Shown here in pieces: positions 9,593 through 63,841 of a stretch of DNA of 64,000 nucleotides. Source of the DNA: an uncultured bacterium (GTDB lineage: Bacteria > Omnitrophota > Gorgyraeia > Duberdicusellales > CBEUCJ01); the NCBI GenBank assembly GCA_965541615.1, contig CBEUCJ010000001.1:3754-67753 (forward strand), read 5' to 3'. The notes beneath the pieces are model-generated. The model made no database searches and was not told the origin of the DNA. It saw only the letters and a list, made by a program, of their open reading frames with translations. How positions within the stretch are numbered: the first letter of the stretch is position 1; every line of letters starts with the position of its first letter. A program made the translations under genes and the position numbers.

Positions 9593-11550
9593 AAAAATAC
9601 ATCTTACATAAAGAATCTGGTCTTTTATCAAAAGTAGATTATGAAAAAGAATTGAATGAACAACAATTAAAAGTAGTTTTAGAAGGAGATGGTGCTTGTT
9701 TGGTCTTAGCAGGTGCAGGAACTGGTAAAACAAGAACTCTGGTTTACAGAACAGCTTTTTTAATTGAAAAAGGGATCCCTTTGAAAAATATATTTTTAGC
9801 TACATTTACCAATAAAGCTGCTAGGGAGATGGTAAAGAGAATAGAAATTCTATTAAAAGCAGATTTAGAAAATCTATGGGCAGGAACTTTCCATCATTTA
9901 GCTAATTTAATCTTAAGAAAAGAAGCCAAAAAAATAGGATTTAATGAGAGTTTTACGATTTTAGATAGAGAAGATTCAAAGGAGATCTTATCTGAATGTA
10001 TAGAAGAATTAAAACTAAATAAAAAAGAAAAGATGTTTCCTAAAACTCAAGTAATCCAGAAGATCTTTAATTTATCTATTAATAGTTTAGAAAGCATTGA
10101 AAATATAGTAAAAGAAAACTTTGATTACCTCTTAGATTTTGTAGAAGAGTTTAGAGTCCTCTTTAAATATTTTAAAAGAAAAAAGAAAAACTCAAACTTA
10201 ATGGATTTTGATGATCTTTTATTTTATCTCTATGAGATTTTAAAAGATGATTCTGTTAGGAAAAAATATGCTTCAAAATTTCTTTATATCTTAGTAGATG
10301 AATTTCAAGATACTAACAAAATTCAATTTGAGATATTAAAAGCTCTCTCTGAGATACATAAAAACATTTTGGTAGTAGGAGATGACTGCCAATCTATTTA
10401 CTCTTTTAGAGGAGCTTACATTAAAAATATCTTAGATTTTCCTAAAGTCTTTAAAAATTGTAAAATTTTTAAATTAGAGATAAACTATAGATCTACTCCT
10501 CAGATATTAAACTTAGCGAATAACATAATTATCCATAACAAAAATCAATTTCATAAGTTTTTAAGTGCTACAAAAAAAGATGGAATAAAACCAATCATAG
10601 TCTGTTGTAGAGACATATGGCAACAGGCAAAATTCGTTACTCAAAGAATAATGGAGTTAGTTGAAACTGGCATCCCTCTAAATGAGATAGCTGTACTTTT
10701 TAGATCGAGATTTCAATCTGCAGAATTAGAATTAGAACTTTTAAAAAAACAGATACCTTATGTGGTAAGAGGTGGTTTAAGATTTTTTGAACAAGCTCAT
10801 ATAAAAGATGTCTTATCTTATCTAAAACTGATTTTAAATCCCAGAGATGAACTCTCTTTTAAAAGAGCTTTAAAACTCCATGAAGGAATAGGTACAGCTT
10901 TCTCTCAAAAAATCTGGAAAAAGTTCTCAGAATTAAATTATGACTTTTTAAAAATTTTTAAAGAGAAGATACCTTTGAATAAAAATGCTGAATTAGGATG
11001 GCAAGATTTTAAAAGATTGATCTCTAAATTAATGAATATAAGTTCTCCTTATAAAATGATAAAAGAAATCCTTGATAGTTTTTATAGAGATTACTGTTAC
11101 TTAGCTTTTGAAGATCCTAAAGAAAGGATTTTAGACTTAGAACAGTTAATGAGGATAGCTGAAAACTATGAATCTTTAAAAAAATTTATCAGTGATTTAA
11201 GTCTCTTTGAAGAATTCAAAGGAGAAATAGTTAGAGGTGCTTTTACTGAAGAGACACTTATATTAACTACTATCCATCAAGCAAAAGGCTTAGAATGGGA
11301 GGTAGTCTTTATTATAGGGTGTGTCGATGGACAATTTCCTCATCCTGAAAGTTTTGAATCTAAAACTAAATTAGAAGAAGAAAGAAGACTATTTTATGTA
11401 GCTGTGACCAGAAGTAAATCTCAGCTTTATATTACTTATCCAACTATAAGATATGATTTTAGATCAGGAGCTATCCTCACCAAAAGATCACAGTTTATTG
11501 AAGAGCTCAAAAAAGATCTATTTGAAGAGTGGGAAATAGAAGAAGTTTAA
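9589..11550 (+). CDS. UvrD/PcrA/Rep family ATP-dependent DNA helicase
   Basis: LVLAGAGTGKTRTLVYRTAFLI Walker A, DEFQDTN motif II, characteristic C-terminal helicase motifs. Confidence 0.85.
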   Translation: MKKYILHKESGLLSKVDYEKELNEQQLKVVLEGDGACLVLAGAGTGKTRTLVYRTAFLIEKGIPLKNIFLATFTNKAAREMVKRIEILLKADLENLWAGTFHHLANLILRKEAKKIGFNESFTILDREDSKEILSECIEELKLNKKEKMFPKTQVIQKIFNLSINSLESIENIVKENFDYLLDFVEEFRVLFKYFKRKKKNSNLMDFDDLLFYLYEILKDDSVRKKYASKFLYILVDEFQDTNKIQFEILKALSEIHKNILVVGDDCQSIYSFRGAYIKNILDFPKVFKNCKIFKLEINYRSTPQILNLANNIIIHNKNQFHKFLSATKKDGIKPIIVCCRDIWQQAKFVTQRIMELVETGIPLNEIAVLFRSRFQSAELELELLKKQIPYVVRGGLRFFEQAHIKDVLSYLKLILNPRDELSFKRALKLHEGIGTAFSQKIWKKFSELNYDFLKIFKEKIPLNKNAELGWQDFKRLISKLMNISSPYKMIKEILDSFYRDYCYLAFEDPKERILDLEQLMRIAENYESLKKFISDLSLFEEFKGEIVRGAFTEETLILTTIHQAKGLEWEVVFIIGCVDGQFPHPESFESKTKLEEERRLFYVAVTRSKSQLYITYPTIRYDFRSGAILTKRSQFIEELKKDLFEEWEIEEV

Positions 11551-52988: not shown

Positions 52989-53055
52989 TTAAAATTAAAA
53001 AATACTCTTGCAGAATAATTCAAAATGTTATAATAAAATATCATCTTCATCTTGA

Positions 53056-53919
53056 ATGCTGTGGTTTTACATTTTAATCATTTTTACAGGCATTTTAACT
53101 ACAATCACAGATATAACCGAGCATAAAATAAAGAATAAACATCTTCTTTTTATAAGTCTTGTAGGAATCTTTTTATATATTATACTCTTCATAAAAAAGG
53201 AATTAAAGTTTTCCCTCAATATGTTACTCAATCCATTTGTAAGTTTAATCATTGGATTTATTCTTTACAAAAATAACTTGTGGCGTGCAGGTGATGGAAA
53301 ATTATTTTTTATTTACTCTCTGCTCTTACCTTTAAACAAGTATTCCTCAATACTTCCTTTTTCTTGTTTTACTTTATTTTTAAACACCTTCTTAATAGCT
53401 TTTTTATTTATATTACCAAGTGTTATTAAAAATTTTTTAAAAAACAAAGAAATTTTTAAAAAATTAATCTCCAAAAAAACTTTTTTATATTTTGGAAGAA
53501 TCTTTTTAATAACCTTTTGCCTTTCTTGGATGATAAGACCTCTCTTATATAAACTCCATTTAGAAAAAAATATTTTTTTTAATTTTATTCTCTTGTATAC
53601 AGGATACTCTTTTATTCGTTCTTCTTTTAAGAAAATTAAAAATAAATTTATTAGTTTTTACATCATACTTATAGCTTTAATCTTAAGATACCTTCTTTTC
53701 CCAGAGAGTCTTTCTATTACAAGCATAATAAATTATTTAAAATATTTATTTTCTTACTCTTTGATCATTTATCTTTTAAAGGATAAATCCATTTTAGACA
53801 AAACTTTTCAAAAAAGAGTCCCTTTTGCACCTTTTATGTTCATAGGTGCTTTACTTACTAATACAGATTTTTTGAAATGGGTCTTAAAAACTTTAGCTTA
53901 CCTGAAACGGTTAATTTAA
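53056..53919 (+). CDS. A24 family (prepilin peptidase/TadV/FlaK-like) membrane aspartyl protease
   Basis: Polytopic membrane protein. First Asp block TITDITEHKIKNKHLLF. Second block NNLWRAGDGKLFFIYSLLLPL matches the G-x-G-D-x-K-L active-site motif. No pilin gene is nearby. Confidence 0.5.
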   Translation: MLWFYILIIFTGILTTITDITEHKIKNKHLLFISLVGIFLYIILFIKKELKFSLNMLLNPFVSLIIGFILYKNNLWRAGDGKLFFIYSLLLPLNKYSSILPFSCFTLFLNTFLIAFLFILPSVIKNFLKNKEIFKKLISKKTFLYFGRIFLITFCLSWMIRPLLYKLHLEKNIFFNFILLYTGYSFIRSSFKKIKNKFISFYIILIALILRYLLFPESLSITSIINYLKYLFSYSLIIYLLKDKSILDKTFQKRVPFAPFMFIGALLTNTDFLKWVLKTLAYLKRLI

Positions 53920-55205
53920 ATAAGATTCTAATTTCTATAGAAAATTACATAGGAAAAGTTAAAAAAGAAGATTTTATTATACACATTCACATAGATGAAA
54001 AGAAAATTACTCTATCAGCAATAAAACTATTATATCTACTCTTAAACAATTATGAAGATAATTATTTTATTATCATTAAAAACCTTCCTTACTGTCTTAT
54101 GCCAGATGCTTTAGAACACATTGTTTACGAAAAGATTCCGAAGAATAAATATCATTATGATGAAATTTGTGAAAAATGTTACTTAAAGAACATTTGTCCT
54201 GGATGGAATGAATCTTTAAACATTGAGAGGAATAAAGTAAACTTACCTAAAGACATTCCTAAAGAAATAGTGATGGAAATAACTACTAAATGTAATCTTA
54301 ATTGTAGGTGTTGTAATTTAGATAAAAGCAACCCTATAAATGCTGAATTTAAAATAGTAAAAAATATAATAGATGAGTGCAAAACTTTAGGAATAAGAGC
54401 TGTAAGATTTACAGGAGGAGAACCTTTATTAAATCCTGATTTAGAAAAGATGCTCTCTTATGCAAAAAGAAATGGATTTTATGTATTACTCAATACTAAT
54501 GCTACTCTTTTAAATTCTCATCTATTAAAGATTTTAGAAAAAAATGTAGATAATGTCCTAATTTCTTTGCAAGGTTACAATCAAACTTCAGAAAGAAGAT
54601 TAACAAATTCTCACATAGATTTCAACAAAAAGCTTACTAACGTAATTAAATTGAATTTTAGAATCCCTATAGTAAGAATTGGTAGTGTAATATCTAAAAC
54701 TTTAATTGAAAATTTTAATAGATATTATTATCTATTAAAAAAGATTGGGATAAAACATTGGGAATTATACAGGCCTATTCTCAAAGATGATGAAGAATTT
54801 GAAATATCTAAAAAGGATTTGATAAAAATCATGTGTCTCTTAATTGAAATAAAAAAAACAGGAATGAAAACAAAAATTGCAAATCCTCTTCCTTTCTGTA
54901 TAGTAAAAAACAAAAAAATTTCTTTAATGAGCCTTTTGGGAGGAATAGCTGATGATGGACACTCAAGAATTGTGTGGGATGCAAAAGGATATTTTAAGCC
55001 AAGTTATTTTATAAATGTGTATTTAGGAAAAACTATTGAGGAATCTTGGCAGGCTCCTTTTTTAAAAAAGTTAAGATCCTTAGACTATCTACCTCAAAAA
55101 TGTAAAGAGTGTTATTATTTGAAATGGTGTAAAGGTGGAAGTAGAGCTTTAGCAAAAATTTTCAATAAGAATTATTTTTCTTCTGATCCTCTTTTTAAAA
55201 CTTAA
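53877..55205 (+). CDS. Radical SAM/SPASM-type protein with ~115-aa Cys-containing N-terminal extension
   Basis: MEITTKCNLNCRCCNLDKS CxxxCxxC at ~residue 130, TGGEPLLNPD, C-terminal CKECYYLKWCKGGS. N-terminal CEKCYLKNICPGW could bind metal or serve as a recognition domain. Confidence 0.7.
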   Translation: MGLKNFSLPETVNLNKILISIENYIGKVKKEDFIIHIHIDEKKITLSAIKLLYLLLNNYEDNYFIIIKNLPYCLMPDALEHIVYEKIPKNKYHYDEICEKCYLKNICPGWNESLNIERNKVNLPKDIPKEIVMEITTKCNLNCRCCNLDKSNPINAEFKIVKNIIDECKTLGIRAVRFTGGEPLLNPDLEKMLSYAKRNGFYVLLNTNATLLNSHLLKILEKNVDNVLISLQGYNQTSERRLTNSHIDFNKKLTNVIKLNFRIPIVRIGSVISKTLIENFNRYYYLLKKIGIKHWELYRPILKDDEEFEISKKDLIKIMCLLIEIKKTGMKTKIANPLPFCIVKNKKISLMSLLGGIADDGHSRIVWDAKGYFKPSYFINVYLGKTIEESWQAPFLKKLRSLDYLPQKCKECYYLKWCKGGSRALAKIFNKNYFSSDPLFKT

Positions 55206-55207
55206 TC

Positions 55208-56020
55208 TTACCAAATTTCTCCAAGAGTCTTTATATAAGAATTTAAACAAGCTTTCTTAATCTTTGAATTTTCTATAAGCTCACAAAGATTCTTATCTTT
55301 TTCTTTTCTTGAAAGATTAAAAATAGCTATATCTCTTGTTATTTTTTCTATCTTTTCTTTTGGATCTGAAGAAAATATTATCTCACAGGCAAACTGCTTA
55401 CATAAAGGAAGTTCTTCTCCTTTCAAATATCTTTCACAAGCTAAACAACTATATTTTTTAAAACCCCAAAATACAGCTATCATTTCTATAATATCATACC
55501 TATCTACACCGCTATTCTCAAAAGGAGAAAAAGAAATTGCTTTCAAAACTAAATCTGCATCACCATTAAAAACTCCTTCACAAAAAATTTTCTCCCAACC
55601 ACTTAAAATACTACAATTACCATTCTTAAAAGCAATGCAAACTTTTTCTGGATCCTTAAAAACTTCTTCATTTTCTTCAACAAAATCTCTGCATCTTCCT
55701 TCCCCTAAGTACCTCATAGATAACATACCATTCGCTGAGCTTCTACAATCTTCTGTCTCACATACATTTAAATCATCTTCTCTTACAGCAATATATTTTT
55801 GAAAGCACTCATAATATTTACTATTCTTTATAAATTCCATCTCTTTCTTTATTTTCTCTTCTATATCTTCTTTTTCTTCAGTTTTTTCTACAGAAAGTTT
55901 TTTAGGTAAAAAAATTACAACTTTTTTTTGCTGAGAAAAAGTCAATTGGAATATAAAAATAAAGGAAAAAACAAACAAGATTTTCTTCAACATTGATTTT
56001 AAAAATTTAATAAGAAGCAT
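55208..56020 (-). CDS. Cys-rich secreted/lipoprotein-like hypothetical protein
   Basis: N-terminal signal/TM (ILFVFSFIFIFQLTFSQQ); 14 Cys in the mature region. Overlaps the upstream small ORF by 14 bp. Confidence 0.5.
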   Translation of the reverse strand: MLLIKFLKSMLKKILFVFSFIFIFQLTFSQQKKVVIFLPKKLSVEKTEEKEDIEEKIKKEMEFIKNSKYYECFQKYIAVREDDLNVCETEDCRSSANGMLSMRYLGEGRCRDFVEENEEVFKDPEKVCIAFKNGNCSILSGWEKIFCEGVFNGDADLVLKAISFSPFENSGVDRYDIIEMIAVFWGFKKYSCLACERYLKGEELPLCKQFACEIIFSSDPKEKIEKITRDIAIFNLSRKEKDKNLCELIENSKIKKACLNSYIKTLGEIW

Positions 56021-56300
56021 GATTAGTATGAATAGAAGAATTTGTATGTGTAAAATGCACTTTTACGCAACAACCAGATGCAGAAGTACTACATTGAGGA
56101 GAGCAAACATTTTTATGACTTGAGTGCGAAGTATGACCTGCAAAAGAATGAGTTAAAGAACTCATTATTCCTAATGCAGAAATCGTTCCCAAACCTATTT
56201 TTAAAATATTTTCTTTAGAAACAAAACCTTTCTCATCTTTTATAAAATCTTTAATGTCTTTTTTAAGATTATTAAATTTATTTTTTTTACTTTTTTTCAT
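56007..56300 (-). CDS. Small precursor-like protein with charged leader, hydrophobic segment and a His/Ser/Thr/Cys-rich C-terminal tail (His-Xaa-Ser-like)
   Basis: Strong SD AAGGAGGTG 6 nt upstream of the ATG. Sequence: MKKSKKNKFNNLKKDIKDFIKDEKGFVSKENILKIGLGTISALGIMSSL-THSFAGHTSHSSHKNVCSPQCSTSASGCCVKVHFTHTNSSIHTNHASY. It starts 4 bp downstream of a SPASM maturase-type rSAM. Confidence 0.6.
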   Translation of the reverse strand: MKKSKKNKFNNLKKDIKDFIKDEKGFVSKENILKIGLGTISALGIMSSLTHSFAGHTSHSSHKNVCSPQCSTSASGCCVKVHFTHTNSSIHTNHASY

Positions 56301-56304
56301 TTTT

Positions 56305-57690
56305 TCACCTCCTTCTTATCCATGATTTAAATATTTTAACATTTTCTTCGTCTTCTAAAATTTTTTCAAAAATACACCTAAATTGGTAATTATAAATTTT
56401 GTAAATAAAAGAACACCAAATTTTAGGAACAAAATTTCTCTGTGTATAATAGTTTAACACAGGACACGTTCCTATCCAAGGCAAAAATGCAGAATTATAA
56501 TCCCACATGTTTACTACAGAAGTATACAAAAGATAAAGGAGCCTTTCTTTTTTAATTATATCCTCATAATTTTCTTTTAAAATATTTCCTAACTTAAATG
56601 TATCTTCATCTACCATCCTTGCTTCATCACAGGGAAAACAACTCCCATCAGGCATATAAGTTATCACATTTCTTCCTGCTCCACATGGATTCATCAAATC
56701 TACATACCCAGCATCCATTTTATTAAAAACTTTCTCTAAAATTACTCTTGCTATTCTTTCTTTTATATAAATCCCTTTTTTATTCAATTCCAAAATGTAA
56801 TCTAATGATTTTTTATAAAACTCACCAAACTCTTCAGCAGTGTATCCTAAATTCAACCAATTTCTGCATGCTACTCCTAATCTATTTACAGGTCTAAGAG
56901 AAATCTCCTCTTGCCCCCATCTTACATATTCATCTATTATCTCCTTATAATACTTTAAAGAATGTTTAGTAATTGTAGGTAATAAATGCACTTTCATCTT
57001 AAATTTCTTTCTAATTTTCTCAATCTTTTTTGCCACAATATCATAACTTCCTTTCCCATTTTTAAATATTCTATTTTTATCATGAAGAAACTTAGGACCA
57101 TCTAAAGAAGTACATATTTCAACATTAAATTTTTTTAAAAATTCCATTTTCTCTTCTGTAAGTAGTGTTAGGTTACTTACTAAAGCGATCCTTAAATTTA
57201 CCTCTTTTCTTTGAAACTTCTTAGCATTTTCTACTAAAAAAGAAACTATCTCCCAGTTAAGTAAAGGTTCTCCTCCTTGAAATTCTAAAGTTACATACGG
57301 ATTTCTCACATCAAAAATGAATTTTAAAACTCGTGTTGCAACCTCATAATTCATATTCTCTTTTTTAAAAGACCTTGTTTGACAGTATCTGCAACTTAAA
57401 TTACAAGCTGTGGTTACTACTGCAATATGAAGAGAAGTATCACTAAAAAGATGCCCATTCAGATTTCTATATTCATTAATCAAATTTTTCAAATTATTCT
57501 CATCTACAATTAAACCTTTTTCATATAATCTTTTAAATAAGGGAGTATTTTCTTTGACTTTTAATGAATTTAATTCTTTAAATTCTTCTTTTGTTAAAAA
57601 ATCCCAACCTCCTAAAAAATTGGATACAAGATATCTATCCTTAATAATAGTTGAATTAAAAGGTAAAATTGCAAATCTTCTATTCTCCAT
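56305..57690 (-). CDS. Radical SAM/SPASM domain peptide-maturase-type enzyme with N-terminal ~85-aa extension
   Basis: VVTTACNLSCRYCQ CxxxCxxC at ~residue 95 and ...FQGGEPLL. SPASM signature CGAGRNVITYMPDGSCFPCDE. The N-terminal extension is RRE/PqqD-like in length. Confidence 0.75.
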   Translation of the reverse strand: MENRRFAILPFNSTIIKDRYLVSNFLGGWDFLTKEEFKELNSLKVKENTPLFKRLYEKGLIVDENNLKNLINEYRNLNGHLFSDTSLHIAVVTTACNLSCRYCQTRSFKKENMNYEVATRVLKFIFDVRNPYVTLEFQGGEPLLNWEIVSFLVENAKKFQRKEVNLRIALVSNLTLLTEEKMEFLKKFNVEICTSLDGPKFLHDKNRIFKNGKGSYDIVAKKIEKIRKKFKMKVHLLPTITKHSLKYYKEIIDEYVRWGQEEISLRPVNRLGVACRNWLNLGYTAEEFGEFYKKSLDYILELNKKGIYIKERIARVILEKVFNKMDAGYVDLMNPCGAGRNVITYMPDGSCFPCDEARMVDEDTFKLGNILKENYEDIIKKERLLYLLYTSVVNMWDYNSAFLPWIGTCPVLNYYTQRNFVPKIWCSFIYKIYNYQFRCIFEKILEDEENVKIFKSWIRRR

Positions 57691-57711
57691 AACTTTAATT
57701 TATCACAGGTT

Positions 57712-58097
57712 TAAACTCATCTATTCCATCAATATCATGCAAAGCAGGAGCAAATTCATTCATTCCTGCTAACAGTATTTTTTGCAAAAATCGAGTGAAG
57801 AAAACATCCTTCCATTAGTTTGAATCTGTATGAGAAGATAACCTAACTTTTTAGCAAATCTAACTATTTCAAAAACATCTTTTCTAATAGTCACTTCTCC
57901 TTCTGTAAATACTACTTCTCTGCACCTTTTAAATAAGCTTCTTCTAATTCTTGTTTTATTTCTTGCGTTGTCTTATCAGGATATATACGTTTATCTGCAA
58001 CTACACAAAATTTACAATCATTTATACAAGAATGACCTACAAAGAGGACTAATCTTTTAACTTGAGGGGGGATTTTATAAAGAAGTTTTTGTTTCAC
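57712..58097 (-). pseudogene. Frameshifted, truncated radical SAM gene remnant
   Basis: Frame 1 (58097->57912): MKQKLLYKIPPQVKRLVLFVGHSCINDCKFC...YLKGAEK*. A second frame continues VFTEGEVTIRKDVFEIVRFAKKLGYLLIQIQTNGRMF...KKYC*. A third gives ILLAGMNEFAPALHDIDGIDEFKPVIN*. Together ~128 aa of an rSAM N-terminal half split over three frames. Confidence 0.6.
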
Positions 58098-58344
58098 TCC
58101 TCAAAAGGTAAATTAAATAATTTAAAAAATCAAAACAATTTTGTAGATTAAACTTATTCAATTTTAAAAAATAATATTTATTTTTTTCTTTAATAGAAAG
58201 AATAAACTCTGCATTCTCTTTTTGTAATCTTTCAAGTATCTCTTTTGAATAAAGATCTCTATGCAATTTTAAAAAAATATTGTTTCTGTTTATTTTTAAA
58301 AAAGGCAAGTTACTTTTTTGCAGATTTCTTTTCCTCTTCTTCAA
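58075..58344 (-). CDS. Hypothetical small protein (89 aa)
   Basis: ORF overlapping both neighbours; K-rich; no motif. May be a spurious overlap. Confidence 0.25.
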   Translation of the reverse strand: MKKRKRNLQKSNLPFLKINRNNIFLKLHRDLYSKEILERLQKENAEFILSIKEKNKYYFLKLNKFNLQNCFDFLNYLIYLLRSETKTSL

Positions 58345-58705
58345 GTTCTTTAATCAACTCTTCTATTTCTCTTTCTTCAGCTTCTTGCACCAAAGAAGGA
58401 GCAGCTGAAAATAAAGCTCTTTGTAGTAAAGTCTTAACTACCTCACCATTAACTTTAAGACTTTCAAAATAATGGGCGTAGTTAATTAATTCATTATAAA
58501 ATTCCATTCCTAATTTATCTAAATTTTCTTTTTTGTCTTTAGGAAACAGCCAAATTTCTACAGTTTTATTCTTTTTTTTATCCAAATAAATATACGCTCT
58601 ATCTAAAAATACATAACTAGCAGAATATACAGTTGAAAGAGGATAAACATCTAAATCTGTAGTCAATCTTACCCAATTTTTCCCTTTTTTTATAACCTTC
58701 TCCAT
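58310..58705 (-). CDS. Hypothetical small protein (131 aa) with acidic C-terminal tail
   Basis: MEKVIKKGKNWVRLTTDLDVYPLSTVYSASYVFLDRAYIYLD... followed by a polyglutamate-rich tail. Tightly coupled to the next gene (stop/start adjacent). Confidence 0.45.
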   Translation of the reverse strand: MEKVIKKGKNWVRLTTDLDVYPLSTVYSASYVFLDRAYIYLDKKKNKTVEIWLFPKDKKENLDKLGMEFYNELINYAHYFESLKVNGEVVKTLLQRALFSAAPSLVQEAEEREIEELIKELEEEEKKSAKK

Positions 58706-59158
58706 CTAATCCCAACAATTGCAGAACCAAATTTCTTTAACTTTCAAGACTCCAGGATTACCAGTTGATGTTGTTACTCTAGTGTGATTACTTTTTAATA
58801 CTGTTTTTCCTCCAGTGTAAAGATAGATATCTTTACCTCCATATGTAAAGATCGTAAAATCATCTCCATCTCCATAAGTAGGCGAATTTCTATTCCACAT
58901 TATTCCTGCAATATAATTACCACTAGCATCAGCTGCTCCTACACTTGGACCTTTTGAAATTCTTAAGTAATGGTAAGAACTTCCCTCAAAATTTAATTGC
59001 AAATATTTCATTCTTGTAATATAGCTTTCTAACTCTTTATATACTCCGTAAGGAGCAGGATAATAAGTAGTAATTGTGATCTTCTCTTGAGAATAAACTA
59101 CTATACTTCCACACAATAATACAACACTTATCCCTAAAATAATTATTTTTCTTATCAT
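58706..59158 (-). CDS. Secreted hypothetical protein (signal peptide; C-terminal CNCW)
   Basis: N-term MIRKIIILGISVVLLCGSIVVYSQE is signal-peptide-like. Gly/Thr/Tyr-rich beta-type sequence. Confidence 0.45.
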   Translation of the reverse strand: MIRKIIILGISVVLLCGSIVVYSQEKITITTYYPAPYGVYKELESYITRMKYLQLNFEGSSYHYLRISKGPSVGAADASGNYIAGIMWNRNSPTYGDGDDFTIFTYGGKDIYLYTGGKTVLKSNHTRVTTSTGNPGVLKVKEIWFCNCWD

Positions 59159-59262
59159 TATTTCATATTATCTCTCTCAAAGTAGATAATGTCAATAATA
59201 TTATTTTATTAAAACTTGATCTAACTTCTATTGCGCTTAGAATAAAATTTATAAAAACTTTT

Positions 59263-59988
59263 ATGAAGTTTACATTTATAAGAGACGACGATGTTTATAA
59301 AGATAGCTTAAAATTTAGGTATATCTTTTTTTTCTTAAAAAAAATCAAAATACCTACTATATATGGAGTAATACCTCAAAAAGTAGAAAAAAAACTAGTC
59401 GAATTCCTAAAAAAAGAAAAAAAGAAAGACCCAAATTTAATAGATATAGTTCAACATGGATGGAAGCATAAAAATTACAGTAAAGACATTAATAACAAAT
59501 ATGAATTTGGACCTACACGTTCATATATCCAGCAAAAAAAAGATATTCTAAAAGGCTATAAAAAAATGCAAAAATTATTCGGAGAATATTTTACTCCTGC
59601 TTTTGTACCTCCTTATCATGGATACAATTCAACTACTTTAAATATTATCGAAGAACTCAAAATCCCTTTATTTTCTGGAGAGAAAATAAATACAAGAAAA
59701 AATTTTTTAAATTTACCTATTAAAATTTCCTTAAATGACTATAGTGATAAAAAAATGAAGATTTTGGATCCAAAAATTTCAATAAAAAAATTTTTATTTT
59801 ATTTAAATTCAAATAGTGAAAAGACCATAGGAATTGTATTCCACCACTCTGGAATACTCTCCAAAAATGATCTTAATAATTTCAAAATCTTCTGTTTTTT
59901 TCTAAAAAAATTAGAAAAAGAAAAAAAGATAAAGTTTATCCTTTTTTCTTCTCTTTTGAAAAGAAAATTTTCAAATTTTTCAAGTTAA
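59263..59988 (+). CDS. Polysaccharide deacetylase (CE4)-like / DUF2334-like protein
   Basis: DVVQHGWKHKNYSK...FVPPYHGYNSTT resembles the His-containing motifs of CE4-type deacetylases. Weak assignment. Confidence 0.4.
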   Translation: MKFTFIRDDDVYKDSLKFRYIFFFLKKIKIPTIYGVIPQKVEKKLVEFLKKEKKKDPNLIDIVQHGWKHKNYSKDINNKYEFGPTRSYIQQKKDILKGYKKMQKLFGEYFTPAFVPPYHGYNSTTLNIIEELKIPLFSGEKINTRKNFLNLPIKISLNDYSDKKMKILDPKISIKKFLFYLNSNSEKTIGIVFHHSGILSKNDLNNFKIFCFFLKKLEKEKKIKFILFSSLLKRKFSNFSS

Positions 59989-60220
59989 CTTTCTTTTTCT
60001 TAAAATGCTCAACACATCTATCGAAATTAAATAAAATTTCCTTTCCTAAAGTATGCTTCTCATCGTCCTGATGGTATAAAGCGAACGCTAAGTCGAACCA
60101 ATTATCTAAATTTTGAGGATTTCTATTTATTGCTTTTAGAAAATATTTCTCTGCTTGTGAGAATTCTTCTGCAAAATAATAAAGATATCCAGCTAAACAA
60201 TAGGCAAACTCATCTTTATT
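59940..60220 (-). pseudogene. TPR-like ORF remnant without a canonical start codon
   Basis: Minus frame gives KWVKKNKDEFAYCLAGYLYYFAEEFSQAEKYFLKAINRNPQNLDNWFDLAFALYHQDDEKHTLGKEILFNFDRCVEHFKKKKVNLKNLKIFFSKEKKKG*. It has a TPR consensus but no ATG/GTG/TTG start after the upstream stop, and it overlaps the 3' end of 59263..59988. Confidence 0.3.
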
Positions 60221-60424
60221 CTTTTTTACCCATTTTCAAATTTTAGATCTCAACAAAGATAATAATTTAGGATTATCAAATATTTTTTCTGCTAATGTAT
60301 TGAAAATTACATCCTTGCGAGTACATCTATCTTCTAATTTATTCGTTGGATGCAAAGGAAGAATATTGGTATATTTTAAAAATTCTAATTTGACTTTATT
60401 CATCAAAAATATTTTATTAAAAAT

Positions 60425-60452
60425 TTGACTTTTTGGAAAGAATTGTTAAAAT
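60425..60452 (+). promoter_or_regulatory. Candidate sigma70-type promoter of rpmH (TTGACT-16-TAAAAT)
   Basis: TTGACT at 60425-60430 and TAAAAT at 60447-60452 with a 16-nt spacer. Only 9 nt to the rpmH ATG, so a near-leaderless transcript. Confidence 0.35.
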
Positions 60453-60461
60453 CAGAGAGCT

Positions 60462-60602
60462 ATGAAAAAGAGGTTAACTACTCCTACAAAATTAAAAGGA
60501 AAAAGGACTCATGGGTTTTTAAAAAGAATGAGCACAAGAGCTGGTAGAAAAGTTTTGAAAAGAAGAAGGAAAAAGGGACGCTGGAGACTTGTACCTGTAT
60601 AG
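60462..60602 (+). CDS. rpmH: 50S ribosomal protein L34
   Basis: [46 protein letters not shown] (46 aa), missed by the ORF track because it is under 60 aa. Confidence 0.9.
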
Positions 60603-60816
60603 AAGATTTTTACTTTTTTTAATATTTTTAATAGAATCTTTTAAAAAAATAAAAAGTTTCTTATTTCCATCTACTTGTAAATATATTCCTTCCTGTTCAG
60701 AATATTTGAAAATAGCTATAATAAAAAAGGGTATATTAAAAGGGTTTTTAAAGTTTCTTATAAGAATTTTGAAATGTAATCCTTTTTCAAAAGGTGGCTA
60801 CGATCCTGTAACTTAA
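60589..60816 (+). CDS. yidD: Membrane protein insertion efficiency factor YidD
   Basis: [26 protein letters not shown]...[14 protein letters not shown] matches the YidD consensus. Overlaps the rpmH 3' end by 14 bp. Confidence 0.85.
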
Positions 60817-60838
60817 AGTTTTCACGTGAAAACTTTAA
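60813..60838. promoter_or_regulatory. parS-like perfect palindrome (TTAAAGTTTTCACGTGAAAACTTTAA)
   Basis: 26-bp perfect palindrome centred on CACGTG. Its 16-bp core differs from canonical parS TGTTTCACGTGAAACA only at the two symmetric outer positions. Lies between the yidD stop and the yidC start. Confidence 0.6.
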
Positions 60839-60845
60839 TAATAAA

Positions 60846-62204
60846 ATGAAAGAAGTAAGATTGCTCTTAGCTTTTACTCTTTCTTTATTAGTCCTTTTCA
60901 TATTTAATCTTTTCTTTTATACACCTCCTTCTAAATTTGAAGAAAAAAAAGTAAATAAAACTCTTACTATACCTACTTCCAAAGATCTATACTTTGAAAA
61001 CGAATCTTTAAAAATAACCTTTTCAAAAGAATATGGTTTTATAAAAGAAATATATTTAAAAAAATTCTCAGAAACTCTCACTTACAAGAATCTTTTTTTC
61101 TTACCAAAGTTTAAAAGTAAAGATATTATAACAACCAGTAATTCAGTAATTTTTAAAGGTGAATTTGGTGAGATAAGATACAAAATAAAAAAATATTTTT
61201 TGACTGTCTCATTTAAAAATTTAAAGGATTCCTTAAAAGAATTTCTGATCTTTGAAAAGTATCCTGACAAAGAAAAGATCAATCAAAGATTTGTAGAAGT
61301 ATTTTATTACAAAAATAATAAGCTTTATAGAAAAAGAGGAAAAACTCAGATAGACAATTTTTCATGGGGAGGTATTAGAGGAAGATACTTTTGCCTAATT
61401 TTTGAACCAGATAAACCAATAAAATGGAAACATAAAAGAAAAAATGGAAAATTCATCTCTACAATTTTGGCAAATTCTGATTCTTTAACCATAAATTGCT
61501 TTATAGGACCTCAAATTAAGGAACTACTCAAAGATGAATGGCAACAGATACTTTATTATGGATTCTTTAGTGGAATTTCCAAATTTATATTAAAAATATT
61601 GAGTTTTTTACACAGTATATTTAAAAATTGGGGGCTCAGTATTATTGTCTTAACTGTCTTAATTTATATAATCCTCTTTCCTTTTACGATTCAAACCACA
61701 AAATCTACGTTAAAGATGCAAGAAATTCAACCAGAAATAGAAAGATTGAAAAAACAATATAAAGATAATCTCCAAAAGTTAAATAAGGAACTCTTAGAAC
61801 TTTACAGAAAACATAAAATAAACCCTCTAAGTGGGTGCTTACCTCTATTTTTTCAAATCCCTGTATTTATTGGATTATATCAAGCTTTAATGCGAGCTAT
61901 AGAATTAAAAGGAGCAAAATTTTTATGGATAAAGGATTTATCTCTTCCTGACAGAACTATAACTATAGGGAATGTAAATATAAATGTACTCCCTATATTA
62001 ACAGCTCTATTATTCTTTTTTCAACAAAAATTTTACTCAACACAAACTTCATCTGAACAGAAAAAATTTTTTGAAATTTTCTTCCCTTTATTTTTCGCAG
62101 TTATCTTTTATTCTTTTCCTTCAGGTTTTCTTTTATATTGGTTGTCTAACTCTATACTGACTCTTCTGTATTATTTAAGATTAAAAACTCTCAAAAATTT
62201 ATGA
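60846..62204 (+). CDS. yidC: Membrane protein insertase YidC
   Basis: N-terminal TM, periplasmic domain, conserved C-terminal 5-TM core (...PLFFQIPVFIGLYQAL..., FLWIKDLSLPD). Confidence 0.85.
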   Translation: MKEVRLLLAFTLSLLVLFIFNLFFYTPPSKFEEKKVNKTLTIPTSKDLYFENESLKITFSKEYGFIKEIYLKKFSETLTYKNLFFLPKFKSKDIITTSNSVIFKGEFGEIRYKIKKYFLTVSFKNLKDSLKEFLIFEKYPDKEKINQRFVEVFYYKNNKLYRKRGKTQIDNFSWGGIRGRYFCLIFEPDKPIKWKHKRKNGKFISTILANSDSLTINCFIGPQIKELLKDEWQQILYYGFFSGISKFILKILSFLHSIFKNWGLSIIVLTVLIYIILFPFTIQTTKSTLKMQEIQPEIERLKKQYKDNLQKLNKELLELYRKHKINPLSGCLPLFFQIPVFIGLYQALMRAIELKGAKFLWIKDLSLPDRTITIGNVNINVLPILTALLFFFQQKFYSTQTSSEQKKFFEIFFPLFFAVIFYSFPSGFLLYWLSNSILTLLYYLRLKTLKNL

Positions 62205-62210
62205 TATAAT
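62202..62210 (+). promoter_or_regulatory. Extended -10 promoter element (TGaTATAAT) for parAB
   Basis: TGnTATAAT at 62202-62210, 29 nt upstream of the parA ATG, immediately followed by the parS-like palindrome. Confidence 0.4.
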
Positions 62211-62217
62211 ATTTTTT

Positions 62218-62237
62218 AAGTTTTCACGTGAAAACTT
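62218..62237. promoter_or_regulatory. parS-like palindrome (AAGTTTTCACGTGAAAACTT), second copy
   Basis: Identical 20-mer to 60816..60835. Sits between the -10 element and the parA start codon (ATG 62239). Confidence 0.6.
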
Positions 62238-62238
62238 T

Positions 62239-63051
62239 ATGGGAAAAGTAATAGGAATTTGTAATCAAAAAGGAGGAACAGGCAAAACTACTACTGCAGT
62301 AAATTTATCTGCTTTTTTGGGATTAGCTGGAAAAAAAGTTTTATTAATAGATATGGACCCTCAAGCAAATGCTACGAGTGGTGTAGGAGTAGAAAAAAGA
62401 AACCCTAATATTTATGAATGCTTAATAGAAAATTTGGATTTTAGAGAGGTTATAACTAAAACAGAATTTCCAAATCTTTGGATTATACCTGCAAATGAGA
62501 GTTTATCTGGTGCAAGGGTGGAATTAATAGAGGTTGAAAATAGAGAGTTCAGGTTAAAAATGATTACTCAAACCTTAAAAGAAGATTTTGATTTTTTAAT
62601 AATAGATGCTCCTCCTTCTTTAGGGATTCTAACTATAAATGTTTTGACTTGTGCAGATTCTGTACTCATTCCTCTTCAATGTGAATATTACTCATTAGAA
62701 GGAATAGGACAATTAATGAATACTATAAATTTAGTCAAAAAAAATCTAAACCCTGATTTAGAAATTGAAGGAGTAATAATGACTATGGCAGATTTCAGGA
62801 CTACTCTCACTCAAGAAGTAATTTTAGAAGTTAGAAAATTTTTTAAAGAAAAGGTATTTAAAACCATCATCCCTAGGAATGTAAAATTAGCTGAAGCTCC
62901 GAGTTTTGGAAAACCTGTTTATTTTTATGATAAAAACTCTACAGGTTCTAAAGCTTATTTTAAATTGACTAAAGAGTTATTAAATGAAGAAATAGAAGGA
63001 GTATATAATGAAGAGAAAATTGGGCAAAGGGTTGCAGGCTTTAATACCTGA
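62239..63051 (+). CDS. parA: Chromosome partitioning ATPase ParA/Soj
   Basis: Deviant Walker A CNQKGGTGKTTTAVNL, DMDPQANAT, IIDAPPSLG. Confidence 0.9.
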   Translation: MGKVIGICNQKGGTGKTTTAVNLSAFLGLAGKKVLLIDMDPQANATSGVGVEKRNPNIYECLIENLDFREVITKTEFPNLWIIPANESLSGARVELIEVENREFRLKMITQTLKEDFDFLIIDAPPSLGILTINVLTCADSVLIPLQCEYYSLEGIGQLMNTINLVKKNLNPDLEIEGVIMTMADFRTTLTQEVILEVRKFFKEKVFKTIIPRNVKLAEAPSFGKPVYFYDKNSTGSKAYFKLTKELLNEEIEGVYNEEKIGQRVAGFNT

Positions 63052-63841
63052 GATAAAGACTTTTCCTAAAGAAGTTCAAAAAGTCAAAATAGAAGAGATT
63101 AAACCGTCTCCTTATCAACCAAGATTAAAAACAGATGAAAAAAGGATCTTAGAATTGATGAATTCTATACGAGAAAAAGGGATCCTGCAACCTTTAATTG
63201 TAAGAAAAAAAGAAACAGGCTTTGAGTTAGTAGCTGGGCACAGACGTTATGAAGCAGCTAAAAGATTGAATTTAAAAGAAGTCCCTGTAATTACAAAAGA
63301 ACTTACAGATAAAGAAGTATTAGAAATCTCTCTTATAGAAAATCTTCATAGAGAAAATCTTAATCCTATTGAAGAAGCTAAAGCTTTCAAAAGATTAATA
63401 GAAGAATTCAATTACACTTTAGAAGATATAGCTCATTTCTTAAGTAAAGACAAAAGCACAATCTCAAATACACTCAGACTTCTAAAACTACCTTCAATTA
63501 TCCAAAAATCTTTAGAAGAAAACAAAATCACACCAGGACACGCAAGAGCTTTATTATCCTGTGAAGACCCTAAAAAACAGATAATTATTTTTGAAAAAAT
63601 TTTAAATGAAAATCTGAGTGTAAGAGAAACAGAGAATTTAGTCCAAAAAGAAAGTCTCACAAAAACTAAAAAGTTTAAAAAAGATTTTAAAATCTTAGCA
63701 TATGAAGATGAATTGAGAAAAGATTTAGGGATAAAAGTAAAGATTACTCAAAGTAAGAAAAATATAAAAGTTATCCTTGAATTTTGTGATAAAGAAGAGT
63801 TAGAAAGATTTATAAGAAAAATAAAAAATGCCATCTTTTGA
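63008..63841 (+). CDS. parB: Chromosome partitioning protein ParB/Spo0J
   Basis: KRKLGKGLQALIP N-term, GILQPLIVRKKETGFELVAGHRRYEAAKRLNLKEVPVI ParB box, HTH (TLEDIAHFLSKDKSTISNTLRLLKLP). Confidence 0.9.
   Translation: MKRKLGKGLQALIPEIKTFPKEVQKVKIEEIKPSPYQPRLKTDEKRILELMNSIREKGILQPLIVRKKETGFELVAGHRRYEAAKRLNLKEVPVITKELTDKEVLEISLIENLHRENLNPIEEAKAFKRLIEEFNYTLEDIAHFLSKDKSTISNTLRLLKLPSIIQKSLEENKITPGHARALLSCEDPKKQIIIFEKILNENLSVRETENLVQKESLTKTKKFKKDFKILAYEDELRKDLGIKVKITQSKKNIKVILEFCDKEELERFIRKIKNAIF

Follow-up and report, generated by a model that had tools for sequence, protein, structure and literature searches.

Two palindromes at the yidC-parAB locus

We analysed a 64-kb stretch of DNA from an uncultured bacterium of the Omnitrophota (contig CBEUCJ010000001.1; hereafter the window), focusing on two identical palindromes that flank yidC and lie next to the partition genes parA and parB. 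Judging from sequence comparison, these palindromes are very probably centromere (parS) sites of the ParB protein encoded at the same locus. The 20-mer AAGTTTTCACGTGAAAACTT is found at exactly the two positions given in an earlier note on this DNA (Table 1), and no third match was obtained in the 64-kb window, even when up to 3 mismatches were allowed. Shuffled sequences gave a chance expectation of 0.03 matches, with 0 of 100 shuffles yielding two. The hexamer CACGTG also occurs only twice in 64 kb, each time within a palindrome copy, compared with a mean of 0.25 in first-order Markov simulations. Both copies are perfect 20-bp palindromes centred on CACGTG. Copy 1 extends to 26 bp (60813-60838), and the stretch common to copies 1 and 2 comprises 22 identical bases. 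The first base of copy 1 is also the final base of the yidD stop codon (TAA, 60814-60816); this copy ends 10 nt before the yidC ATG and lies ca. 1.4 kb upstream of parA. Copy 2 ends 1 nt upstream of the parA ATG. The latter copy had been placed between an extended -10 element and the parA start codon, and its coordinates were borne out by our analysis. Both sites are kept in strain variants that are 98.4-99.5% identical and too alike to inform on selection. The part of the genome examined amounts to 74 kb (the window plus an extension from a strain contig) and holds two copies of the site.

The chromosomal parS consensus given in reviews is TGTTNCACGTGAAACA (PMC7022226). When aligned in register with this 16-bp consensus, the window site shows mismatches at 4 of 16 positions, all of them at ±7 and ±8. 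The window core GTTTTCACGTGAAAAC and canonical TGTTTCACGTGAAACA agree throughout their inner 12 bp, TTTCACGTGAAA. The outer TG is inverted to GT in the window core, resulting in T replacing G at ±7 and a G:C pair at ±8. We refer to sites with this core as long-arm sites. The earlier note had described a 14-bp match with a single differing pair; this description is adequate for the 14-bp core (12 of 14 positions) but not for the 16-bp site with its four mismatches. The window sites fall outside the usual parS definition, i.e. the 16-bp consensus within about 2-3 mismatches, and searches with the canonical consensus at usual tolerances therefore miss a long-arm site. Because TGTTTCACGTGAAACA had zero matches in the window at up to 3 mismatches, the simple label 'canonical parS' was dropped. 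A literature search covering the exact 16-mer and 14-mer, non-canonical parS, and parS in Omnitrophota or Elusimicrobia found no paper in the library searched, and long-arm sites are apparently a version of the near-universal parS without earlier description.

Table 1. Features of the rpmH-parB region in window coordinates
Feature	Position	Strand	Basis or context
rpmH	60462-60602	+	Pfam; synteny in relatives L072 and L195-L199
yidD	60589-60816	+	Pfam; synteny in relatives L072 and L195-L199
Probable long-arm parS copy 1	60816..60835	.	Core 16-mer GTTTTCACGTGAAAAC at 60818-60833; in the 29-nt yidD-yidC gap
yidC	60846-62204	+	Pfam; synteny in relatives L072 and L195-L199
Putative parAB promoter	62181..62210	+	TTAAAA, 18-nt spacer, TATAAT with upstream TG; consensus scan 10/12
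Probable long-arm parS copy 2	62218..62237	.	Core 16-mer at 62220-62235; between putative extended -10 and parA ATG
parA	62239..63051	+	Soj-type partition ATPase, 270 aa; without N-terminal DNA-binding domain
parB	63008..63841	+	277 aa; Pfam ParB_N, HTH_ParB, ParB_C

ParB contact residues and site classes in relatives

Both its profile matches and its fold identify the parB product as a genuine ParB. It matched Pfam families PF02195 (1.7e-30), PF17762 (7e-36) and, weakly, PF23552 (2.5e-4), and scored 175 bits against the NCBIfam model parB_part (TIGR00180), which has a cut-off of 58. Its score against the Noc model TIGR04285 was 230.6 and thus under the cut-off of 315. An AlphaFold2 model with a predicted local distance difference test (pLDDT) score of 88.4 could be superposed on parS-bound Caulobacter ParB 6t1f_D with a template modelling (TM) score of 0.86 and a root-mean-square deviation of 2.3 Å, and its fold also matches 7bnk and 1vz0. 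In a large protein collection, only three ParBs were close: P0001 from the same organism (99% identity), P0002 (56%) and P0003 (51%).

Guanine 1 of parS, the G at ±7, is hydrogen-bonded by R173 in Caulobacter ParB. Both R173 and G201 are reported to be absolutely conserved among ParB orthologues, and R173 was invariable among the parS-binding ParB variants recovered by deep mutational scanning (PMC7383237). Caulobacter numbering, obtained by adding 24 to that of the window ParB, is used here for alignment columns. The contact region of the window protein reads S146-K-D-K149-STISNTLRLLK...PG177HAR. K149 (codon 63452-63454), located at the start of the recognition helix in the AlphaFold2 model, occupies the R173 column, which holds R in 1vz0 and 7bnk and Q in Noc 7ng0. 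L138 (63419-63421) is found at the Q162 column and G177 at the G201 column. The window ParB hence departs from the reported invariance in the R173 column while the glycine at 201 is kept. The 117 nearest homologues outside the clade all carry R173, G201 and H202, with Q162 in 111 of them. All three members of the window sublineage carry K173, L162 and G201. A profile built from the window-clade ParBs retrieved about 120 proteins (124 tabulated), many of them named Candidatus Omnitrophota; in the tabulated set we counted K173 in 122, L162 in 93, R200 in 119, S or T at 201 in 123 and Q202 in 123.

The window ParB also differs from model proteins around its cytidine triphosphate (CTP)-binding box. 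The GERRxR motif reads GHRRYEA (GHRR at 63236-63247), with both arginines kept and the glutamate changed to histidine. ENLHR (63338-63352) replaces ENLQR, and both GHRR and ENLHR are shared by P0002 and P0003. GGRR is present in 57 of the 124 Omnitrophota K-clade ParBs. In model ParBs, CTP hydrolysis and the opening of the clamp have been linked to the glutamate of the GERR box, and its loss means that the CTPase behaviour of the window ParB may differ from theirs.

The sites that accompany these proteins were also compared. A ParB-anchored scan using one genome per GTDB species yielded 65 loci, the nearest being Candidatus Omnitrophota at no more than 49% identity. Of these 65, 40 carry canonical GTTTCACGTGAAAC, in many cases a short distance ahead of parA (e.g. 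Omnitrophota, Endomicrobiia), and none has the long-arm 16-mer. Five Omnitrophota loci with R173-type ParBs (L001, L002, L003, L005 and L059) share the yidC-parA-parB synteny of the window and carry canonical tGTTTCACGTG(A/G)AACa upstream of parA, at a distance of 20-60 nt in four cases and ca. 210 nt in L005; no long-arm site was found in any of the five. The contig encoding P0002 (L072) shows dnaN-dnaA leftward followed by rpmH-yidD-yidC-parA-parB-ndk rightward. In this contig the parA ATG is preceded by ccGTTTTCACGTGAAAACgc (L072:5594-5611), which in turn follows TGTGATATAAT; its 16-bp core is that of the window sites, and its flanks are unrelated to theirs.

As a prediction test, five further loci (L195-L199, including the complete chromosomes CP070684.1 and CP070807.1) were selected by ParB sequence alone. 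Their gene order is gyrA-gyrB-x-dnaN-dnaA or equivalent, then rpmH-yidD-yidC-gap-parA-parB-ndk-yicC-gmk-rpoZ. In ca. 20 kb per locus, 17 parS-like sites were detected. Every one of them is long-arm and located between yidC and parA; none is canonical. Sites in relatives form arrays of 2-6 at variable distance to parA. The consensus over 28 sites of the K173-clade Omnitrophota is GTTTYCACGTGAAAAC, with T at ±7 in 28 of 28, G at -8 in 24 of 28, C at +8 in 25 of 28 and no conservation at ±9. No canonical site was found among the K173 loci examined, and the 16-mer core is invariant in relatives with 44-56% ParB identity and across phyla. Because the orthologous slot is occupied by long-arm sites here and by canonical sites in the R173 sisters, the window sites appear to be members of a lineage-wide long-arm parS class with core GTTTYCACGTGAAAAC that replaces canonical parS. 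This comparison, with canonical parS in the same slot of R173 relatives and the long-arm 16-mer in the organism's own lineage, supports the original proposal that the palindromes are chromosomal ParB centromere sites.

To follow the core beyond this lineage, we scanned metagenome contigs for the exact 16-mer, which matched at least 120 loci. Among the matches listed, a site lies no more than 1.5 kb from parA or parB in 27 loci. The same applies to 10 of the 18 listed loci with at least 2.5 kb on both sides, and to 16 of the 21 listed multi-copy loci (2-5 copies). Based on a ParB tree and source names, these loci fall into three groups, namely the Omnitrophota clade, Elusimicrobiota and Armatimonadota (Chthonomonadales). 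The Elusimicrobiota group, exemplified by Elusimicrobia bacterium GWB2_63_22 and Ca. Avelusimicrobium, is sister to the Endomicrobiia, which have canonical sites and R173; in Elusimicrobiota a long-arm site accompanies either K173 or R173.

Armatimonadota ParBs have R, Q or P in the R173 column, and in ca. 127 Chthonomonadales-like ParBs these residues were found 88, 25 and 14 times, respectively. One Armatimonadota locus (L201), whose ParB P0294 carries Q173, holds three copies of tATTGCACGTGAAATa with A at ±7 downstream of parB. The copies of attATTGCACGTGAAATaat (10653-10668, 10869-10884 and 11042-11057) are identical and lie just downstream of parB-NUDIX. P0294 keeps G201 and is therefore not Noc; its site shares A at ±7 with the Noc-binding site (NBS) and has a parS-like CACGTG centre. 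The L201 sites thus look like a second natural parS variant. According to a published rule, Q173 reads adenine 1. The pairing of Q173 with A at ±7 in L201 fits this rule and independently supports a natural code in which the base at ±7 goes with residue 173. The cultured Chthonomonas calidirosea (R173) was uninformative, with no parS-like site within ±10 kb of its locus.

High-GC contigs (at least 0.64), mostly short and from soil, account for 51 of the 120 listed exact 16-mer matches (within L076-L194; e.g. L080, L083, L085, L088 and L114). The palindrome reaches CGTTTTCACGTGAAAACG or longer in 45 of these 51, and par genes are within reach in 2, one of which (L113, site 1916) has a K173 ParB 9 kb away. 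Possibly, these matches are long-arm parS sites that lie dispersed in the genomes of a high-GC phylum.

Origin proximity and neighbouring genes

The earlier note had placed the locus in the origin-proximal region and had suggested an analysis of guanine-cytosine (GC) skew. GC skew is negative over 1-60 kb and its cumulative curve reaches a minimum at ca. 60-62 kb, beside the sites. The curve rises over the next 12 kb, and adding a strain contig of 98.4% identity to the end of the window shows the rise to continue to 73.8 kb. Gene orientation switches at ca. 60-62 kb, near the minimum. The rpmH-yidD-yidC genes (60462..62204) form the left part of a conserved Omnitrophota origin-region block, and relatives carry dnaA-dnaN-gyrBA directly upstream of rpmH (L072, L195, L196 and L198). 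A tblastn search of the window did not find dnaA, dnaN or gyrB, and no DnaA-box clusters or repeats were found near 57.6-60.5 kb. The region upstream of rpmH (53000-60400) instead contains radical-SAM/SPASM genes, an HxsD-like gene (58310-58705) and a polysaccharide-deacetylase-like gene (59263-59988). In this organism, dnaA must lie elsewhere. The placement near the origin is thus upheld by the skew minimum and by the synteny of relatives, while the origin genes and a DnaA-box cluster are missing from the window. We consider the sites likely to be origin-proximal and assign no position to oriC itself.

The identities of rpmH, yidD, yidC, parA, parB and the start of ndk were confirmed using Pfam and NCBIfam. 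ParA matched Pfam AAA_31, CbiA and ParA; its NCBIfam ParA-family matches were all under the curated cut-offs. Upstream of copy 2, an element TGATATAAT is located at 62202-62210, the TGA of which doubles as the yidC stop codon, and the same element precedes the site in L072, whose ParB is 56% identical.

Several further features of the region were recorded. With respect to the classic rpmH-rnpA-yidD-yidC order, rnpA is absent between rpmH and yidD, and the rpmH stop overlaps the yidD open reading frame (ORF; 60589-60620). The same arrangement was seen in every Omnitrophota relative examined (L072, L195-L199). A promoter-like element of rpmH, composed of TTGACT, a 16-17-nt spacer and TAAAAT/TATAAT with an upstream TG, is common to window positions 60425-60452 and L072:3723-3751. 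A TPR-like ORF on the minus strand (59936-60406) contains an in-frame TGA at 60236-60238 that reads CGA in three 98.4%-identical strain contigs (L066-L068), and may represent either a strain-specific nonsense mutation or a sequencing error. About 3 kb past the window end, a toxin-antitoxin-like HEPN/nucleotidyltransferase pair (L066:12992-13659) interrupts the otherwise conserved ndk-remA-gmk-rpoZ-coaBC block in this organism. Rfam and tRNA scans of the window returned no match.

Proposed function, alternatives and known systems

From the sequences of the sites, their rarity, their conserved position and core, and their covariation with ParB residues, we infer binding, a changed preference, spreading and repression in the following manner. 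Dimers of the ParB encoded 0.8 kb downstream would bind each site via their helix-turn-helix, shut into CTP-dependent clamps and then slide along yidC-parAB. The partition complex built in this way would be the substrate on which the Soj-type ParA acts. The ParB of this lineage would be re-tuned for the outer half-site through replacement of R173 by lysine (K149) and of the contact residue Q162 by leucine. Occupancy of copy 2 would lower parAB transcription in a negative feedback, an effect that would be expected because copy 2 separates the likely -10 element from the parA start codon. In function, the system would be an ordinary ParABS centromere in which the outer half-site and the ParB contact residues appear re-coded. 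We regard this explanation as a whole, i.e. long-arm parS as ParB nucleation sites of a chromosomal ParABS system with a re-tuned ParB and feedback through copy 2, as probable. A true shift in ParB specificity seems somewhat favoured, and feedback on parAB through copy 2 is a tentative proposal that may well prove wrong.

A number of points weigh against this explanation. Its support is sequence comparison in an uncultured organism, the distribution of sites is known over 74 kb of the genome, and the covariation amounts to about three clades of independent events in a rough neighbour-joining tree rather than to more than 100 independent observations. In Elusimicrobiota, long-arm sites are also found beside R173 ParBs (L098, L132, L142, L153, L165, L169 and L185), which means that R173K is not required and that other determinants must exist. 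A universal rule in which K173 pairs with long-arm and R173 with canonical sites was rejected on the same grounds. In one R173 locus, L094, two canonical sites occur together with a long-arm site, and the two classes may therefore not be strictly orthogonal. Regarding regulation, promoter-like matches numbered 13 compared with 11.6 expected from shuffles, i.e. no excess, and this renders our parAB promoter call weak. Limited repression by spreading of a chromosomal ParB is documented in Vibrio cholerae (PMC4010829), and ParB autoregulation at its own promoter is not generally established for chromosomal systems. Natural re-coding of ParB-parS recognition in several phyla is a proposition to which we give about even chances. 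It would comprise a large part of the Omnitrophota, including the organism studied here, in which ParB has K173 and L162, in many cases also S/T201 and Q202, and the outer G:C pair of parS is moved outward by one base. Elusimicrobiota and some Armatimonadota would share the long-arm site, and in some Armatimonadota Q173 would be paired with A at ±7.

Shared use of the central 12 bp offers another account of the site change. In this account the palindromes would be degenerate canonical parS that any ordinary ParB binds via the inner 12 bp, which are identical to the consensus, and both the TG-to-GT change and R173K/Q162L would reflect neutral drift. The coexistence of R173 ParBs with long-arm sites in Elusimicrobiota and the presence of both site types in L094 are in agreement with this idea. 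However, drift predicts a mixture of sites, yet all 28 K173-clade sites have T at ±7 and none is canonical. The G:C pair at ±8 is kept in ca. 86-89% of sites while ±9 is random, the sister R173 Omnitrophota loci carry canonical sites only, and deep mutational scanning yielded no strong parS binder without R173 (PMC7383237). We consider a degenerate canonical site unlikely. Chance duplication, or a small dispersed repeat without function resembling repetitive extragenic palindromic (REP) elements or miniature inverted-repeat transposable elements (MITEs), would account for the 22 identical bases shared by the copies. This has next to no probability given 0.03 matches expected by chance and two copies only in 74 kb, and a lineage-specific selfish repeat is excluded by the cross-phylum conservation beside parAB.

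The palindromes could also act in RNA, as hairpins in a polycistronic mRNA where yidD meets yidC and where yidC meets parA, with a role in processing, attenuation or translational control of yidC and parA. Predicted hairpins of -9.6 and about -6 to -7 kcal/mol, a z-score of -3.9 for copy 1 and the end of copy 2 directly before the parA ATG, where no Shine-Dalgarno sequence is evident, are compatible with such a role, and the level of Caulobacter ParB is controlled by 5' mRNA structure (PMC13371061). Any palindrome folds, however, and neither a T-tract nor a terminator was detected in a scan around both sites. The z-scores of copy 2 (-1.8) and its L072 counterpart (-1.35) are unremarkable, there is no Rfam match, and the sequence is conserved rather than the pairing, with no compensatory changes. 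The arrays of 2-6 sites at variable distance from parA in relatives likewise speak against this role. An RNA element was hence rejected as the main explanation and has only a slim chance of being correct. CACGTG-centred palindromes are used by various DNA-binding proteins, and the sites might be operators for another regulator of yidC and parAB instead of targets of ParB. This is highly improbable, because the linkage of the 16-mer with parAB extends over at least three phyla, because it takes the place of canonical parS in orthologous loci and because it covaries with ParB contact residues. Moreover, no candidate regulator gene is conserved beside the site in L195-L199.

If centromere function and re-coding hold, parS, which is treated as among the most conserved bacterial protein-binding sites, would have changed together with its reader. 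The reported R173/G201 rule is broken by the window lineage and by more than 100 Omnitrophota ParBs, with a matching site change. Long-arm lineages would thereby provide a natural test of the residue-173 to outer-base rule that emerged from ParB/Noc engineering, as well as a ready-made series on the co-evolution of a DNA-reading protein and its essential target without loss of function. Genome surveys use the canonical 16-mer and would score long-arm lineages as lacking parS; conversely, the long-arm motif would serve as an origin-region marker for genomes of uncultured Omnitrophota, Elusimicrobiota and Armatimonadota. If the pairs discriminate against canonical parS, they would be natural orthogonal centromere systems, and orthogonal ParB/parS pairs, once validated, would be useful for multicolour labelling of DNA loci.

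Among known systems, canonical parS of Spo0J/ParB (Bacillus subtilis, Caulobacter crescentus, Thermus thermophilus) is like the window site a CACGTG-centred inverted repeat with the same inner 12 bp and a variable base at the same place (-4, T or C). It also lies beside parAB in the origin region in one to few copies, and its cognate ParB has ParB_N, HTH_ParB and ParB_C domains and the 6t1f/1vz0 fold. The window system differs in its outer dinucleotide, GT instead of TG, and in a ParB with K for R173 and L for Q162. Plasmids and secondary chromosomes (Vibrio cholerae chromosome 2, Burkholderia replicons) use dedicated ParB/parS pairs with distinct specificities, and these pairs are divergent plasmid-type ParB families with unrelated site sequences. 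In contrast, the window system is of the primary-chromosome Spo0J type, and its site deviates from the universal one only minimally, at two positions.

The known specificity switch within the ParB family is Noc with its site tATTTCCCGGGAAATa, in which two positions differ from parS, among them the base at ±7 in the outer half-site (PMC7383237). The same protein column changes in both cases, R173Q in Noc and R173K in the window protein. Noc, however, has Q173, R201, K179/K184 and a CCCGGG centre, whereas the window system has K173, G201, T179, K184 and a CACGTG centre with A6 kept. The window ParB would further be the partition protein itself, not a paralogue with a new role, because no other ParB is encoded at the parAB locus and its gene accompanies parA. 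A further comparable case is the Armatimonadota Q173 ParB with tATTGCACGTGAAATa in L201, likewise a natural chromosomal parS variant at ±7 with a changed R173 column. It differs from the window system in having A at ±7, a normal 14-bp G/A-to-C/T span without outward shift, and Q rather than K, and is represented by one locus.

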